DNA from: Escherichia coli
Lineage (GTDB): Bacteria > Pseudomonadota > Gammaproteobacteria > Enterobacterales > Enterobacteriaceae
Reading direction: 5' to 3' (one strand)
NCBI RefSeq assembly: GCF_024700885.2
Contig: NZ_CP117016.1
DNA: 64,000 bases
This document shows, in pieces, positions 26,100 through 29,823 of this stretch. Numbering within the stretch: position 1 is the first letter of the stretch; every line of letters begins with the position of its first letter. The notes beneath the pieces were generated by a model, which saw nothing but the letters and a program-made list of their open reading frames with translations, was not told the DNA's origin and made no database searches. The position numbers were made by a program, and so were the translations under genes.

Positions 26100-26353
26100 T
26101 GGCTCGCATTACCCTGCGCATCACTGGCACACAACTGCTGTGCCAGGATGAACACCCTTCCCTTCTGGCGGCGCTGGAATCCCACAATGTGGCGGTTGAG
26201 TACCAGTGCCGCGAAGGTTACTGCGGTTCCTGTCGCACGCGCCTTGTTGCAGGCCAGGTGGACTGGATTGCCGAACCGTTAGCCTTTATTCAGCCGGGGG
26301 AAATTTTGCCTTGTTGTTGCCGGGCAAAAGGCGATATTGAAATCGAGTTGTGA
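26099..26353 (+). CDS. yfaE: 2Fe-2S ferredoxin YfaE (NrdB radical maintenance), 84 aa
   Basis: 84-aa ORF with the cysteine pattern C..C..C...C; ATG overlaps the nrdB stop. Confidence 0.9.
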   Translation: MARITLRITGTQLLCQDEHPSLLAALESHNVAVEYQCREGYCGSCRTRLVAGQVDWIAEPLAFIQPGEILPCCCRAKGDIEIEL

Positions 26354-26368
26354 TCGGGTACTAGCGCC

Positions 26369-26402
26369 AGATACGACGCTTACGCGTATTATCTGGCCTA
26401 CA
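26369..26402. repeat. Degenerate REP-like palindrome between yfaE and inaA
   Basis: GCCAGATACGACGCTTACGCGTATTATCTGGCCTAC has 8-bp terminal inverted repeats and resembles REP. Confidence 0.4.
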
Positions 26403-26406
26403 ACGA

Positions 26407-27057
26407 TTACATGGCGTAGTAATACGCTTTCACCTGCTCCCAGTCCGCTTTGGGGATCGGCTCCAGATATTTTTCCAGCTGGCGGAAGTCATGATTAATC
26501 GCTTTATCGCGACGCAAGCGGCGACGACTTTTCTCCAGATCAAGAAATCCAGCTTCTGCCTTACCTTCTGTTTTCACATAGATATGGCGAACATAGCAAC
26601 AGCCATGCTGACGATTAACGCTATGCATTTTCTTAAACGCCAGCGCCACTGCTTTCAACATGGCTTGCCGTACTTCGTCAGAATAGGGCGTTACTGCATG
26701 CCGGGCATACCAGTCAGCAATGCTGATGAACCCCGCCATATCTTCAGTCACCAGCAACGCGCGCCATTCCCCCTCAATTTTCACCGCTTCACCAAAAACA
26801 ATCTTCGGCACGATGACACCAGCCCGTTCCAGTTCTTTAATTACCGCAACCTCACGGACAATCGTTGGTCGGCCGAACGGATAACGTACGGAATGAAACA
26901 GATGATGCGTCATGCGCTTTACATATAGCTTTTTGCCGTTGCGCTCGACGCATTGCACCCCGCTCATACCATTACGGCGATAGTTAGGCTCTTCAACCCA
27001 GTCGCCCTCTGTTGCCCACCAGTGATTAAATTCGTCGTGCTTTGCTGAAACTGCCAT
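26407..27057 (-). CDS. inaA: Acid-inducible protein InaA (lipopolysaccharide kinase family), 216 aa
   Basis: 216-aa ORF MAVSAKHDEFNHWWATEGDWVEEPNYRRNGMSGVQ; position after yfaE as in K-12. Confidence 0.88.
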   Translation of the reverse strand: MAVSAKHDEFNHWWATEGDWVEEPNYRRNGMSGVQCVERNGKKLYVKRMTHHLFHSVRYPFGRPTIVREVAVIKELERAGVIVPKIVFGEAVKIEGEWRALLVTEDMAGFISIADWYARHAVTPYSDEVRQAMLKAVALAFKKMHSVNRQHGCCYVRHIYVKTEGKAEAGFLDLEKSRRRLRRDKAINHDFRQLEKYLEPIPKADWEQVKAYYYAM

Positions 27058-27137
27058 ACCCTATCGCCTGTCATTTTTTATTTACAACAATGACTATAGG
27101 TGGTTACCTGCGAAAAATCTGAATGAAACGTGTCGTA

Positions 27138-28328
27138 TTAATGAATTTCTTTTGCCACTACTAGCGCGACACCGCTTTTACCCTTCATTTGCAGCGCATA
27201 GACTCCACCAGCCACTACCACTAATAGTGCACCCAGCAGATAAATCATTCGGTAGCCAGTATGTGCAACCATCATCCCCATCACACAGGCTCCCAGCGCC
27301 AGGCCTGCATCCATCGCATTGAAGAAGAGGGAGTTTGCGACACCGATTTTATGCGGTTCCACTGAACTGATAATCTGCGTCTGAAAAACTGGCGTCACGG
27401 AACCATACCCGATACCAATCAATGCGCCAGAAACAACCATCATTATGCTTCCCTGGGTGTAGCCGAGAACCACCAGTCCTACCGTAAAGAACACAAGGCA
27501 AGGGTAAACCACATATTTCGGTCCTTTTTTGTCGCAGACATTGCCGGTAAAGGTACGGCAAATCATCAGGAAGATAGCGTAGCAAAGCAGGAAATTACTG
27601 GCTGCCGACATCAGGTTAAGTTCGCGTGCATAAAGCGCCAGAAAAGCAGAAACCCCGGCATACGAAAAGGTCATAAAAAAGGTGACCATCGCAAATGGCA
27701 ACGCCGCGCGATCGAACATGGCGGCGAAGCCCATTTTCGGCGTTGAACCATCAGCATGGCTGATAACCGGCGGCACTGTCATAATCAGCGACAGAATAAT
27801 CCCCACCGCTGCCACGCCGGTGCATAGCCAGAAAGCCAGATTAAAGGCTTCCCAGCGCGCCATATTCAGACCAATCCACGGCCCGACCACCATTGCCATC
27901 CCCATTGCCAGAGAGAAAAAACTGATGCCCTCCCCACGTCGGGAGGCCGGGATCAGCCGCGCGGAAATCGTTCCTTTTACCGTAGTGATAACCCCGAAGG
28001 TAATACCATGAAGCACCCGAATAAAAAGCAGTGATTCAATTGAGTGGCAAAAAGGATACAGCGCAGTGACCACCAAAAAGGCCAGAGAAGAGAGCCCCAG
28101 AATAGTTTTATTCGAATATTTACCTACCCATTGCCCGGCAAAGGGGCGAATAACAATGGCGGCAATTAAAAATAAAGTCACCAACAAACCTGCTTTATCA
28201 GGAGAGGCATGCAAGCGGTCTGAGATATAAATTGGCAACAATGTTAGTAAAACATAAAAGACGAAGAAAATAATAAAGCTGATGATGGTTATTGCCCAAA
28301 AATCCTTCGTCCATAACTTCTCTTTCAT
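27138..28328 (-). CDS. MFS-family transporter, 396 aa, substrate unknown
   Basis: Twelve predicted hydrophobic segments; MFS-like loop motif (GKYSNKT / RLIPASRRGEG); divergent from the adjacent LysR regulator gene. Confidence 0.75.
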   Translation of the reverse strand: MKEKLWTKDFWAITIISFIIFFVFYVLLTLLPIYISDRLHASPDKAGLLVTLFLIAAIVIRPFAGQWVGKYSNKTILGLSSLAFLVVTALYPFCHSIESLLFIRVLHGITFGVITTVKGTISARLIPASRRGEGISFFSLAMGMAMVVGPWIGLNMARWEAFNLAFWLCTGVAAVGIILSLIMTVPPVISHADGSTPKMGFAAMFDRAALPFAMVTFFMTFSYAGVSAFLALYARELNLMSAASNFLLCYAIFLMICRTFTGNVCDKKGPKYVVYPCLVFFTVGLVVLGYTQGSIMMVVSGALIGIGYGSVTPVFQTQIISSVEPHKIGVANSLFFNAMDAGLALGACVMGMMVAHTGYRMIYLLGALLVVVAGGVYALQMKGKSGVALVVAKEIH

Positions 28329-28479
28329 ACCCTACCGCCTGTCAGGATGACGCACGCAGACAACACTCCCGTTACTGCGGTTGCGTCAAATTGTGATGTA
28401 CTTTGCAGAACAGAAGTATAAATGGCGGCATGCTATTAGAGAAATTAATCGTTTTAATATTATTGATTAGCAAACTCTA

Positions 28480-29358
28480 ATGACTCTTACCCAAATAAAT
28501 TCTTTACTCGCCGTGCTGGATTACGGTGGCTTTACTGAAGCCAGCAAGCGATTGTTCATGACGCAGTCGGCGGTAAGTCAGGCAATTGCTGCCCTCGAAC
28601 AAGAACTTGGCGTGAGTATACTGTTACGCGATCGCCGTAAAGCTATACAACTGACCGCAGCAGGTCATCGCATTGTGCATCATCTGCGCGCCATTAATCG
28701 GGAAGTGAACGCAGTAAAAGAGATAGCCGAGCAGGAAAAGCAGAACCCTCAAAGAACGCTGAGACTTGGTTGTTTCCCCAGCGTCTGCGCCTGTATCTTA
28801 CCGGCTGTGATTCGCTACTTTGAAATTCATCATCCGAATATAAAAATTATTCCTTTTGAGGAAAATAGCACAGCGATTATTGATTCCCTTCAGAATGAAT
28901 CCATTGATGCCGGTTTTGTTCATTTTCCGGTGAGCGGAATGTACTCCGTGCCCATTTATCAGGATAAATTCACCGTAGTGTTACCGCCCAACCATGCTCT
29001 GGCAAAAAACAGCACTATTACAGTGGAAGAGTTAATGGGTGAACCATTAATTATTAGTAAAGGACGCTATGAATTAAGCATTATGGCACTATTTAAAGAA
29101 AAGAATATTACCCCACAGATAAAATATGAATTTAATCACCCTGATACAGCGATCAGTTTTATTCGACAGGGATTAGGCATCGCCTTATTACCAGAGTTAA
29201 CGCTGAAAACCATTGCAGATGAATTGTGTTCCGTTCCTCTCGAACCAACCTTCTATCGACAGATTTCGTTGCTGGCTAAAGAAAAGCCGGTAGAAGGCAG
29301 TCCACTGTTTTTACTGCAAATGTGTACGGAACAACTCGTGGTGAGTGGAAAAATTTGA
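28480..29358 (+). CDS. LysR-family transcriptional regulator, 292 aa
   Basis: N-terminal LysR HTH (TQINSLLAVLDYGGFTEASKRLFMTQSAVSQAIAALEQELG) and C-terminal substrate-binding domain; divergently paired with the MFS gene; K-12 has a LysR-type pseudogene (yfaH) at this position. Confidence 0.8.
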   Translation: MTLTQINSLLAVLDYGGFTEASKRLFMTQSAVSQAIAALEQELGVSILLRDRRKAIQLTAAGHRIVHHLRAINREVNAVKEIAEQEKQNPQRTLRLGCFPSVCACILPAVIRYFEIHHPNIKIIPFEENSTAIIDSLQNESIDAGFVHFPVSGMYSVPIYQDKFTVVLPPNHALAKNSTITVEELMGEPLIISKGRYELSIMALFKEKNITPQIKYEFNHPDTAISFIRQGLGIALLPELTLKTIADELCSVPLEPTFYRQISLLAKEKPVEGSPLFLLQMCTEQLVVSGKI

Positions 29359-29513
29359 TGTAAGACATGAGATTGATGACAAATGCAAGACTGCCTGATT
29401 CGCCACACTTAGTTGTACTATAGCCTTTACCAGGCGTAATAATTCGTTTTCACCTGATTTTGGCCCACTTTGTGAATTGGCGATATATATTTATCCAGTT
29501 GGGAGAAGTGACA

Positions 29514-29645
29514 ATGACTCCAGGTAGAAATCGGTATGAAGCGCCCGACTCACTGTCAAAACCGATCGTTGAGAGTAATGACACTCCGGCGAACAGTACA
29601 CAGTTTACTCTGGAGCCATTCTCAATCTTCAAGTGGGATACCTAG
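29514..29645 (+). CDS. Hypothetical small protein, 43 aa (speculative)
   Basis: ATG at 29514 preceded by GGGAGAAG 5 nt upstream; encodes MTPGRNRYEAPDSLSKPIVESNDTPANSTQFTLEPFSIFKWDT; lies at the edge of the AT-rich island. Confidence 0.25.
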   Translation: MTPGRNRYEAPDSLSKPIVESNDTPANSTQFTLEPFSIFKWDT

Positions 29646-29823
29646 TAACTTTTCAGGGAAGTTATCAATATCTGTTTGTTACTTATTACCGTATTTATTA
29701 ACAATAATGATACTTTCTACCATGCGTAAAGGTCTTCGTAATAAAATGAGCTAAATTTGATAGTGAATATATTTTGCAAAGATTAGATTGTATCTTGTTA
29801 ACTCACAATACAAGGAATCATTT

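Follow-up and report, generated by a model that had tools for sequence, protein, structure and literature searches.

The closest described counterpart of the locus analyzed here is O-island 97 (OI-97) of E. coli O157:H7 EDL933, which carries z3494 and z3495. A 2024 study (Wang et al. 2024, PMC10819331) reported that Z3495 promotes LEE expression via rcsF in EHEC, with binding to the rcsF promoter detected by both EMSA and ChIP-qPCR, and that the z3495 mutant, not the z3494 mutant, shows lower LEE expression, adherence, and mouse colonization. In the published assays, the z3494 deletion mutant was without phenotype, and the same work recognized an MFS_YfcJ domain in z3494 (PMC10819331). Candidate sugar-efflux genes include yfcJ and yhhS (PMC3429515), and YfcJ-like proteins have been tied to efflux (PMC3429515) but also to cytochrome bo3 biogenesis (PMC10588857). 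Our survey of the literature on STM2280, STM2281, yfaH, ECs3122, and ECs3123 recovered nothing functional; ECs3124 proved to be glpQ. A further point of comparison is provided by the classical divergent LysR modules, which combine negative autoregulation and T-N11-A boxes with a recognition site around -65 and activation sites around -35.

An intact divergent pair corresponding to OI-97

The window, i.e., the whole 64-kb stretch of E. coli DNA that was analyzed, contains the following genes at this locus:

26407-27057: inaA, the neighbor on the transporter side
27138-28328, minus strand: MFS transporter gene, 396 aa (ORF and Pfam MFS_1; orthologue of EHEC z3494, YfcJ-like)
28480-29358, plus strand: LysR-type transcriptional regulator gene, 292 aa (ORF, HTH_1, and LysR_substrate; orthologue of EHEC z3495)
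from 31115: glpQ, the neighbor on the regulator side

The transporter and regulator genes are divergent, lie 151 bp apart, and are flanked by inaA and glpQ. In searches against Pfam, the transporter matched MFS_1 (2.9e-58, 197.9 bits; cut-off 33.4) over residues 14-336 and a second stretch, such that both six-helix halves are covered. The regulator showed the architecture and length (~300 aa) characteristic of LysR-type proteins, with an N-terminal HTH_1 domain (residues 3-63, 2.5e-18, 66 bits) and a C-terminal LysR_substrate domain (residues 88-267, 5.1e-37, 128 bits). The intact divergent MFS/LysR pair proposed in the earlier note is thus confirmed, with ORFs at exactly these coordinates and Pfam matches for both products. 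Both ORFs equal in length their orthologues in seven compared strains or species and are free of internal stops, and the approximate dN/dS for the pair (0.03-0.15) points to purifying selection; together, these features argue that both genes are real and under selection and that the ORFs did not arise by chance.

The pair is OI-97 of EDL933 and was therefore already known. Examination of z3494/z3495 in EDL933 placed them at the same chromosomal site as the window pair, and the loci of EDL933 and 86-24 share the order inaA-MFS-LysR-hypothetical-glpQ. Amino-acid identity to the O157 copies reaches 98.5% for the transporter and 98.6% for the regulator, although the window strain itself is not O157. 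The published lambda-Red and cloning primers (PMC10819331, Table S3) map to 27205-27244 with one mismatch and to 28442-28482 and 29359-29398 with none, the latter two, at 0 mismatches, being the arms of the z3495 knockout. Consequently, the view of this locus as uncharacterized has to be abandoned, as its regulator is the one studied experimentally in EHEC (PMC10819331).

Ancestral position, deletion in K-12, and states across E. coli

In MG1655, only the pseudogene yfaH (b2238, 2349687-2349893) lies between inaA (b2237) and glpQ (b2239). Alignment of this region to the window resolved the following features:

27245-29123: 1,879-bp segment absent from K-12 (K-12-to-window alignment, exact reconstruction)
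27237-27244, plus strand: left copy of the 8-bp direct repeat CAGATAAA (deletion junction)
29116-29123, plus strand: right copy of the 8-bp direct repeat CAGATAAA (deletion junction)
29124-29358, plus strand: part of the regulator gene surviving in K-12 as yfaH (NF007272 match and nucleotide alignment)

We conclude that yfaH is the leftover of a 1,879-bp deletion between the two CAGATAAA repeats, i.e., a 3' remnant of the window regulator gene. Relative to the window, the losses in K-12 comprise 90% of the transporter gene at its 5' end, the promoter region between the two genes, and ~215 codons from the start of the regulator gene, and with them the HTH domain and most of the effector domain. 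What it keeps is 107 bp of the transporter 3' end (seen as a 105-bp remnant in DH5alpha) and the last ~240 bp of the regulator, this regulator remnant being 91.5% identical to the window at the nucleotide level. In agreement with this, NF007272, the NCBIfam model of the 68-aa YfaH fragment, matches residues 226-292 of the regulator (4e-43). The MG1655 annotation, the K-12 alignment, and the NF007272 match thus concur with the statement that K-12 has only a LysR-type pseudogene here; instead of two intact genes, its site holds remnants only.

We recovered the divergent pair from 24 Enterobacterales species, the carriers being Escherichia spp., Salmonella, Citrobacter, Kluyvera, Klebsiella, Pseudocitrobacter, Superficieibacter, Phytobacter, Pluralibacter, and Leminorella. 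Synteny held on examination of these orthologues: nrd/yfaE and/or glp genes flank the pair in 23 of the 24 species, placing it between nrdAB-yfaE and glp, while the flanking nrd/yfaE/glp markers were not detected in Leminorella. The transporter dS of ~1.6 is typical of E. coli-Salmonella orthologues, and no integrase, IS element, mobility gene, or tRNA borders the pair, whose GC content is 0.46 against a window mean of 0.51. Shared with other enterobacterial species at the same site and devoid of such mobility genes or tRNA, the pair does not behave as a horizontal island. Comparative sequence evidence indicates that it is ancestral to Enterobacterales and varies within E. coli through repeated deletions.

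To gauge this variation, we surveyed 5,426 complete E. coli genomes. The pair is intact in 1,216 (22%), reduced to the K-12-type junction in 3,130 (58%), and without trace in 1,060 (20%), the last representing a B2-type loss. B2-type strains align 19 bp into the transporter 3' end, and the ~70 bp between this transporter remnant and the glpQ terminator matched none of the fetched loci. A second, deeply divergent allele of the regulator gene is also present in the species, and in some genomes IS1 or IS5 has inserted within or close to the pair, or into the neighboring island. The 5-kb region of the window is 100% identical to that of canine strain 1190 and 97.2% identical to that of O157.

Between the regulator gene and glpQ lies a compositionally distinct segment:

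29368-31082: AT-rich island, GC 0.34, 1.7 kb (junction alignments)
29824-30894: orphan ORF of the AT-rich island, 356 aa

This island is found in 1,045 genomes but does not occur in the other species of Escherichia, in Salmonella, or in Citrobacter; unlike the pair, it therefore displays two attributes expected of a horizontal island, namely absence from the site in related species and atypical composition. Its ORF has no family matches in Pfam or NCBIfam, and searches of the island ORF and the pair against defense-system and phage libraries returned no meaningful matches. All four combinations of the pair deletion (27245-29123) and the island indel (29368-31082) occur among E. coli genomes, which identifies them as independent indels. 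Hence, the 27.1-31.1 kb stretch is not the single accessory segment the earlier note took it for, and the AT-rich island looks like a separate, E. coli-specific insertion.

According to the published view, OI-97 was laterally acquired, independently by EHEC/EPEC and some ExPEC, with K-12 representing the ancestral empty site. This view can draw on the fact that 78% of the complete E. coli genomes lack the pair, its GC content somewhat under the window mean, a two-clade distribution read as independent acquisition (PMC10819331), and the divergent second regulator allele, which indicates that recombination has acted at the locus. We nevertheless consider it very unlikely: the K-12 site is not empty and retains the two ends of the pair, fused at the 8-bp repeat, B2-type strains retain their 19-bp alignment into the transporter, and a syntenic pair of ordinary transporter dS occupies the site in other enterobacterial species, with neither mobility genes nor a tRNA beside it. 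The loss of the pair from most E. coli, together with the IS1 and IS5 insertions noted above, could also suggest that the window strain carries a decaying, non-functional pair that is heading toward the K-12 state. This is hardly credible, given full-length ORFs without stops, 98-99.5% protein identity to the other intact alleles of this type in E. coli, low dN/dS, and intact operator dyads (see below). The identity of the pair with OI-97, its deletion in K-12, and its ancestral origin are all nearly certain. The 'laterally acquired' interpretation of OI-97 (PMC10819331) is at odds with the synteny found here, and a reading of the pair as an acquired accessory module likewise fails against a constant chromosomal position across Enterobacterales and losses by deletion.

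Conserved dyads in the divergent promoter region

Phylogenetic footprinting of the intergenic region delineated a set of conserved elements:

28329-28479: divergent promoter/operator region, 151 bp (footprint of 24 and 6 sequences)
28466-28481: dyad A, ATTAG-N6-CTAAT, candidate recognition site, overlapping the LysR start codon, ~-65 from the putative transporter start
28444-28458: dyad B, ATTAA-N5-TTAAT, candidate activation site, ~-43 (palindrome search and pattern match)
28435-28449: dyad C, ATTAA-N5-CTAAT, ~-34 (conservation, palindrome, and pattern match)
28415-28420, minus strand: TATACT, candidate transporter -10 hexamer (conserved -10-like hexamer)
28392-28397, minus strand: ATCACA, between the dyads and the transporter start, in 23/24 sequences

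Overall, the dyad footprint is one of conserved arms and variable spacers. The arms of dyad A are kept in nearly all species, with a single-base change in a few, whereas its spacer varies; dyad B is nearly invariant across the 24 sequences; and dyad C overlaps dyad B one helical turn off, on top of a weak -35. The three dyads are the sole matches to the pattern ATTAR-N5/6-YTAAT in the 64-kb window (0.51 expected), and in practically all of the fetched enterobacterial loci they reappear at this intergenic position and nowhere else. Dyads B and C fit T-N11-A, while dyad A, being N6-spaced, corresponds to T-N10/12-A and does not. The region between the divergent genes accordingly contains T-N11-A boxes of the LysR type that are conserved in 24 species and unique in the window.

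The position of the candidate -10 reads TATACT in Escherichia, Salmonella, and Citrobacter and TATAAT or TATTAT in Kluyvera and Klebsiella. A strict sigma-70 consensus scan of the intergenic region called no promoter, so the -10 in our model is drawn from conservation only, and the -65/-43/-34 geometry depends on it through the putative transcription start. The locus shares with classical LysR modules the divergent layout, an HTH_1 plus LysR_substrate protein, and three dyads (two of them T-N11-A) spaced at -65/-43/-34 from that putative start; it differs from them in the N6 spacer of dyad A. The closest named regulators in NCBIfam, namely GltC, CidR, AlsR, CynR, and HcaR, all score far under the cut-off against the window regulator.

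The sole exception to ATCACA is CTCACA in one Citrobacter youngae, and no conserved RNA structure was found around this element. A cis-regulatory RNA in the transporter leader was considered and rejected: Rfam gave a single, spurious sub-threshold match (Yar_1), the RNAalifold consensus over 19 species was practically unstructured, at -0.24 kcal/mol with no compensatory pairs, and the single-sequence fold had a z-score of -1.33.

Transporter family and proposed regulation

Among named families, the transporter scores best in NCBIfam against PRK05122, PRK12382, and CntE, all far under cut-off. With the YfcJ/YhhS-type models it shares end-to-end alignment (residues 10-380) and the 12-helix MFS_1 architecture. 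However, it falls well short of equivalog status (PRK05122, 109.6 bits vs 374; PRK12382, 85.3 vs 364) and is an orthologue of neither, instead forming a separate subfamily recognizable by the N-terminus MKEKLWTKDF. The homology search for its MFS subfamily thus returned a YfcJ-like protein, yet one below the YfcJ/YhhS cut-offs. On a plain Kyte-Doolittle scan rather than a dedicated predictor, the hydropathy peaks fell into 11-12 segments, interrupted at residues 183-207, consistent with ~12 transmembrane helices and a central cytoplasmic loop, as in MFS proteins. DHA-type drug/H+ antiporters bear the antiporter motif C, G-x8-G-x3-GP-x2-GG, in TM5. The corresponding segment of the transporter, GISFFSLAMGMAMVVGPWIG, which includes GMAMVVGPWIG, reads G-x8-G-x5-GP-x2-G and represents a partial motif C only.

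By sequence, the best solved-structure match is NorA, the DHA1 multidrug exporter of S. aureus (PDB 7lo7, 8ttf; E ~2e-13), with the alignment confined to the N-terminal six-helix half and hence a resemblance at the superfamily level only. The key acidic residues of NorA are located in the C-terminal half, beyond the aligned part. More generally, PDB matches to the transporter and the regulator remain at the superfamily level and indicate neither substrate nor inducer. As named models for both proteins score far below cut-off, homology does not allow a substrate or an inducer to be assigned, in keeping with the earlier note, which had left the substrate unassigned. The full-length NCBIfam and PDB similarities are chiefly to exporters (YfcJ/YhhS-type models, CntE, NorA, and SotB). 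Distant homologues of the transporter in Firmicutes are 30-55% identical, share the N-terminus MKEKLWTK, and sit beside a divergent LysR or an upstream MarR gene. Across enterobacterial and Firmicutes loci, the only recurrent neighbors are regulators (LysR, MarR) and Usp, and no catabolic or assimilation gene is conserved beside the pair in the 24 enterobacterial or ~12 Firmicutes loci.

We propose that the pair constitutes an ancestral enterobacterial regulator-transporter module between nrdAB-yfaE and the glp genes. The regulator would bind the three conserved dyads, which lie at ~-65 and, overlapping each other, at ~-43 and ~-34 of a weak transporter promoter, and from there would repress its own gene. 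Once bound by a small-molecule inducer, it would activate transcription of the transporter, a putative 12-helix, proton-coupled YfcJ-like MFS protein that would most likely export the inducer or a related compound. The match of the -65/-43/-34 spacing from the conserved -10-like hexamer to the textbook LysR layout supports this mechanism, and the regulator probably controls the transporter through the dyads. The account as a whole is, in our judgment, a quite likely one, this grading being a blend of its parts.

Regarding direction, the balance of similarities tilts toward export. If the transporter were instead an importer, the regulator would sense an external nutrient or cofactor and induce its uptake, with metabolism encoded elsewhere. 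Uptake systems with divergent LysR-transporter pairs are known, the transporter has partial matches to symporter families (aromatic acid/H+ at 57 bits, PgtP, galactonate), its motif C is incomplete, and a YfcJ-like protein was reported as necessary for cytochrome bo3 cofactor supply (PMC10588857). Import is nonetheless the less favored option, and on the whole unlikely, as no catabolic or assimilation gene is conserved near the pair in the loci compared, the best full-length similarities are exporters, and some Firmicutes homologues are under a MarR-type regulator and adjoin a Usp gene, a typical efflux or stress context. It is also conceivable that the regulator acts mainly as a global or virulence regulator (rcsF to LEE), with the transporter a mere neighbor rather than a target, as the LEE, adherence, and mouse colonization effects confined to the z3495 mutant and the EMSA and ChIP-qPCR results at the rcsF promoter would suggest (PMC10819331). 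We regard this as improbable, because the two genes stay paired in species without LEE and even in different phyla, 24 species share the intergenic dyads, and the rcsF upstream region in K-12 has no copy of the dyad. Moreover, the ChIP enrichments are only ~2.3-fold, lie mostly in highly expressed genes, and are listed with K-12-like coordinates; with such coordinates, the cognate intergenic site could not be scored. An rcsF/LEE role and control of the transporter by the regulator are mutually compatible.

Extending the regulator-exporter model, we tentatively suggest that the conserved job of the regulator in all Enterobacterales may be the induction of a YfcJ-like exporter by a gut- or host-derived compound. 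The rcsF/LEE effect might then be a recent co-option or an overexpression artefact, the repeated E. coli losses (58% K-12-type, 20% B2-type) could reflect selection against the module in some niches, and the triple-dyad operator could serve as a handle on the inducer.

What the present analysis adds to the earlier work is the ancestral origin of the pair, the frequencies of its states in E. coli, the separate AT-rich indel, and the three conserved dyads. Its weight is modest, and the locus neither opens nor resolves a long-standing question. The operator dyads offer a concrete and cheap route to the regulator-transporter link and the inducer. Viewing the locus as an ancestral module that was deleted, and not as an acquired virulence island, alters the reading of the EHEC phenotype, and the case illustrates that 'islands' defined against K-12 can be mere K-12 deletions.

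An intact transporter–regulator pair at the OI-97 locus

The earlier note had reported an intact, divergent MFS transporter/LysR regulator pair between inaA and glpQ. This core held in the ORF list and Pfam searches, which placed both genes precisely as follows, 151 bp apart:

27138–28328, minus strand: transporter ORF, 396 aa (ORF list; Pfam MFS_1, 2.9e-58)
28480–29358, plus strand: regulator ORF, 292 aa (ORF list; N-terminal HTH_1, residues 3–63; LysR_substrate, residues 88–267)

On one side of the pair lie nrdA, nrdB, yfaE and inaA, and on the other a single orphan ORF within AT-rich sequence, followed by glpQ, glpT and glpA. E. coli strain 1190, isolated from a dog, matches the surrounding 5 kb (26300–31300) at 100% identity, and its annotation names the two genes "MFS transporter" and "LysR family transcriptional regulator".

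Through the EHEC EDL933 locus tags, we located a published account of O-island 97 (OI-97), a 2,006-bp region comprising z3494 (MFS protein, MFS_YfcJ motif) and z3495 (LysR-type regulator) (Wang et al. 2024, Microorganisms 12:140, PMC10819331). Mapping the homology arms of its knockout primers (Table S3) onto the window placed them at 27205–27244 (1 mismatch), 28442–28482 and 29359–29398 (0 mismatches each). The EDL933 and 86-24 chromosomes share the gene order of the window (inaA-MFS-LysR-hypothetical-glpQ), and its proteins are 98.5% (transporter) and 98.6% (regulator) identical to the O157 copies. The pair is the already known OI-97 locus, a point on which the earlier reading needed amending, as it did on the pair's origin and on the adjacent AT-rich island.

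Ancestry of the pair and its loss within E. coli

The pair has been described as laterally acquired (PMC10819331), and the earlier note had placed it in a variable accessory segment; our comparisons point in the opposite direction, to an ancestral pair. Salmonella, Klebsiella, Kluyvera and Citrobacter have transporter orthologues of ~85% identity, at the same chromosomal place in every case examined, the usual order being ubiG-nrdA-nrdB-yfaE-MFS<>LysR-glpQ/glpT or glpABC. With each species represented by one genome, a scan recovered the divergent pair in 24 Enterobacterales species, with nrd/yfaE and/or glp genes adjoining it in 23; in Leminorella neither flanking marker was detected.

Carriers of the pair in the species scan
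Escherichia and Salmonella: three non-coli Escherichia species; Salmonella enterica subsp. arizonae and diarizonae
Other genera: seven Citrobacter, four Kluyvera, Klebsiella spallanzanii, Pseudocitrobacter, Superficieibacter, Phytobacter, Pluralibacter

All orthologues compared have equal lengths (396 and 292 aa), and comparisons with appreciable, unsaturated dS gave dN/dS of 0.03–0.09 for the transporter and 0.05–0.15 for the regulator. The E. coli–Salmonella transporter dS of ~1.6 is as expected of vertical orthologues. In Salmonella, Citrobacter, Kluyvera and Klebsiella, yfaE directly abuts the transporter gene (loci L008–L036 against window inaA, 26407–27057); since the intervening inaA is confined to Escherichia and Pseudocitrobacter, it is inaA, not the pair, that is the lineage-specific insertion here.

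In K-12, the pseudogene yfaH (b2238) is, as the earlier note had stated, the sole entry between inaA (b2237) and glpQ (b2239) of MG1655, and the two intact genes are not found there: aligning K-12 to the window revealed that 27245–29123 (1,879 bp) is missing. The octamer CAGATAAA bounds the deleted segment (27237–27244 and 29116–29123) and survives in K-12 as one copy, the signature of microhomology-mediated deletion. The deletion took the promoter region and approximately the first 215 regulator codons, together with the 5' 90% of the transporter gene; a 105-bp remnant of the transporter C-terminal end is also present in the DH5alpha annotation. An NCBIfam equivalog derived from the 68-aa YfaH fragment aligns with window regulator residues 226–292 (4e-43). 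The K-12 remnant is 91.5% identical to the window and its flanking genes 96–98%, an extra divergence expected for a pseudogene.

States of the locus in 5,426 complete E. coli genomes
Pair intact (K-12-deleted segment present): 1,216 genomes (22%)
K-12-type junction: 3,130 genomes (58%)
Neither remnant traceable (e.g. ST131/O25b:H4): 1,060 genomes (20%)

In the remnant-less strains, homology to the window ends 19 bp into the transporter 3' end, which suggests a second, larger deletion. Such B2-type strains retain ~200 bp from inaA to glpQ (1059–1260 in the O25b:H4 ST131 locus L007), including a decayed ~19-bp trace of the transporter 3' end and ~70 bp without a match in any fetched locus.

Among carriers, the regulator gene and intergenic region exist as two deeply divergent alleles (window ~28150–29370 against strain XD35, L006), with ~76% nucleotide and 84% amino-acid identity, saturated dS and flanks at 97–100%. 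Of the 1,216 pair carriers, about 99 (e.g. O145 RM9467, ZH142) lie within the 80–90% identity band. This pattern suggests that recombination or introgression acted on the locus long ago. Separately, E. coli contamination of a Collinsella metagenome bin almost certainly accounts for a 3.5-kb contig labelled 'MAG: Collinsella sp.', which bears the regulator (99%), island ORF (98%) and transporter (98%) of E. coli.

The adjacent AT-rich island

The island lies between the regulator gene and glpQ:

29368–31082: AT-rich island, 1.7 kb, GC 0.34, present in 1,045 genomes
29824–30894: orphan ORF, 356 aa

The ORF gave zero matches in Pfam, NCBIfam, PADLOC and PHROG. The proposal that 27.1–31.1 kb behaves as a single accessory segment did not survive comparison, as pair and island vary independently, in all four combinations.

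Combinations of pair and island in E. coli
Both: 710 genomes (window, O157:H7)
Pair without island: strain elppa5
K-12 deletion with island: WCHEC020032 (IS1 inserted in this example)
Neither: K-12

Given these combinations, and the island's absence from other Escherichia species and other genera among the loci compared, it is a separate, E. coli-specific insertion. In some lineages IS1 lies inside it. Between the window and O157 versions of the ORF there is a compensated double frameshift (residues 199–209), which explains why the strain 1190 annotation flags the gene as 'frameshifted'.

Candidate operator, regulator targets and transport direction

An alignment of the intergenic region across 24 strains and species revealed a sharp footprint of three dyads with variable spacers and conserved arms (one base off in a few species):

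28466–28481: dyad ATTAG-N6-CTAAT, overlapping the regulator start codon
28444–28458: dyad ATTAA-N5-TTAAT, fitting T-N11-A
28435–28449: dyad ATTAA-N5-CTAAT, fitting T-N11-A and overlapping the preceding dyad
28415–28420, transporter direction: conserved −10-like hexamer TATACT
28392–28397, minus strand: ATCACA (other strand TGTGAT), between the dyads and the transporter start codon

T-N11-A is the box expected of LysR-type regulators. Across the 64-kb window, ATTAR-N5/6-YTAAT has three matches, all in this intergenic region, against 0.51 expected, and in other loci the pattern recurs at the equivalent position and practically nowhere else. A strict promoter scan made no call at TATACT; were it the −10, the dyad centres would fall at about −65, −43 and −34, with a weak −35 under the third, a geometry that would fit a classical recognition site plus two activation sites. 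ATCACA is kept in 23 of the 24 sequences (CTCACA in one Citrobacter youngae); its complement resembles a CRP half-site, and no conserved RNA structure was found around it.

Deletion of z3495 reportedly reduces LEE transcription, adherence to HeLa cells and colonisation of mice, deletion of z3494 gives no phenotype, and Z3495 binds the rcsF promoter (PMC10819331). The K-12 rcsF upstream region contains zero copies of the conserved dyad, suggesting that rcsF is not a primary, conserved target; this does not disprove the reported binding. The published Z3495 ChIP-seq peaks are enriched only ~2.3-fold (log2 ~1.2–1.8) and mostly cover rRNA and strongly expressed genes (Supplementary Table S4). Peaks are also listed on glpQ/T and glpABC, adjoining the locus. 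The table follows MG1655 numbering (glpA peak 2352683–2353187 within glpA, 2352647–2354275); if a K-12-like reference served for read mapping, no peak at the cognate z3494-z3495 region could have been scored.

In the family search proposed in the earlier note, the transporter aligned best over its full length with YfcJ/YhhS-type models and with CntE, the staphylopine exporter, every score falling far short of its cut-off. These likenesses favour an exporter, as do NorA and SotB as best solved-structure matches, a partial antiporter motif in TM5 and the finding of no linked metabolic genes beside the pair; with moderate confidence, we consider export likelier than import. Firmicutes homologues (30–55% identity, same MKEKLWTK N-terminus) have a LysR gene as divergent neighbour in Neobacillus and Desulfosporosinus, an upstream MarR gene in its place in Cytobacillus and Gottfriedia, and a downstream Usp gene in Bacillus sp. 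EB600 and Neobacillus soli; no conserved adjoining catabolic gene was found at these loci. The predicted operator sites offer a way to test for inducer and substrate, for the direction of transport and for the link between regulator and transporter.
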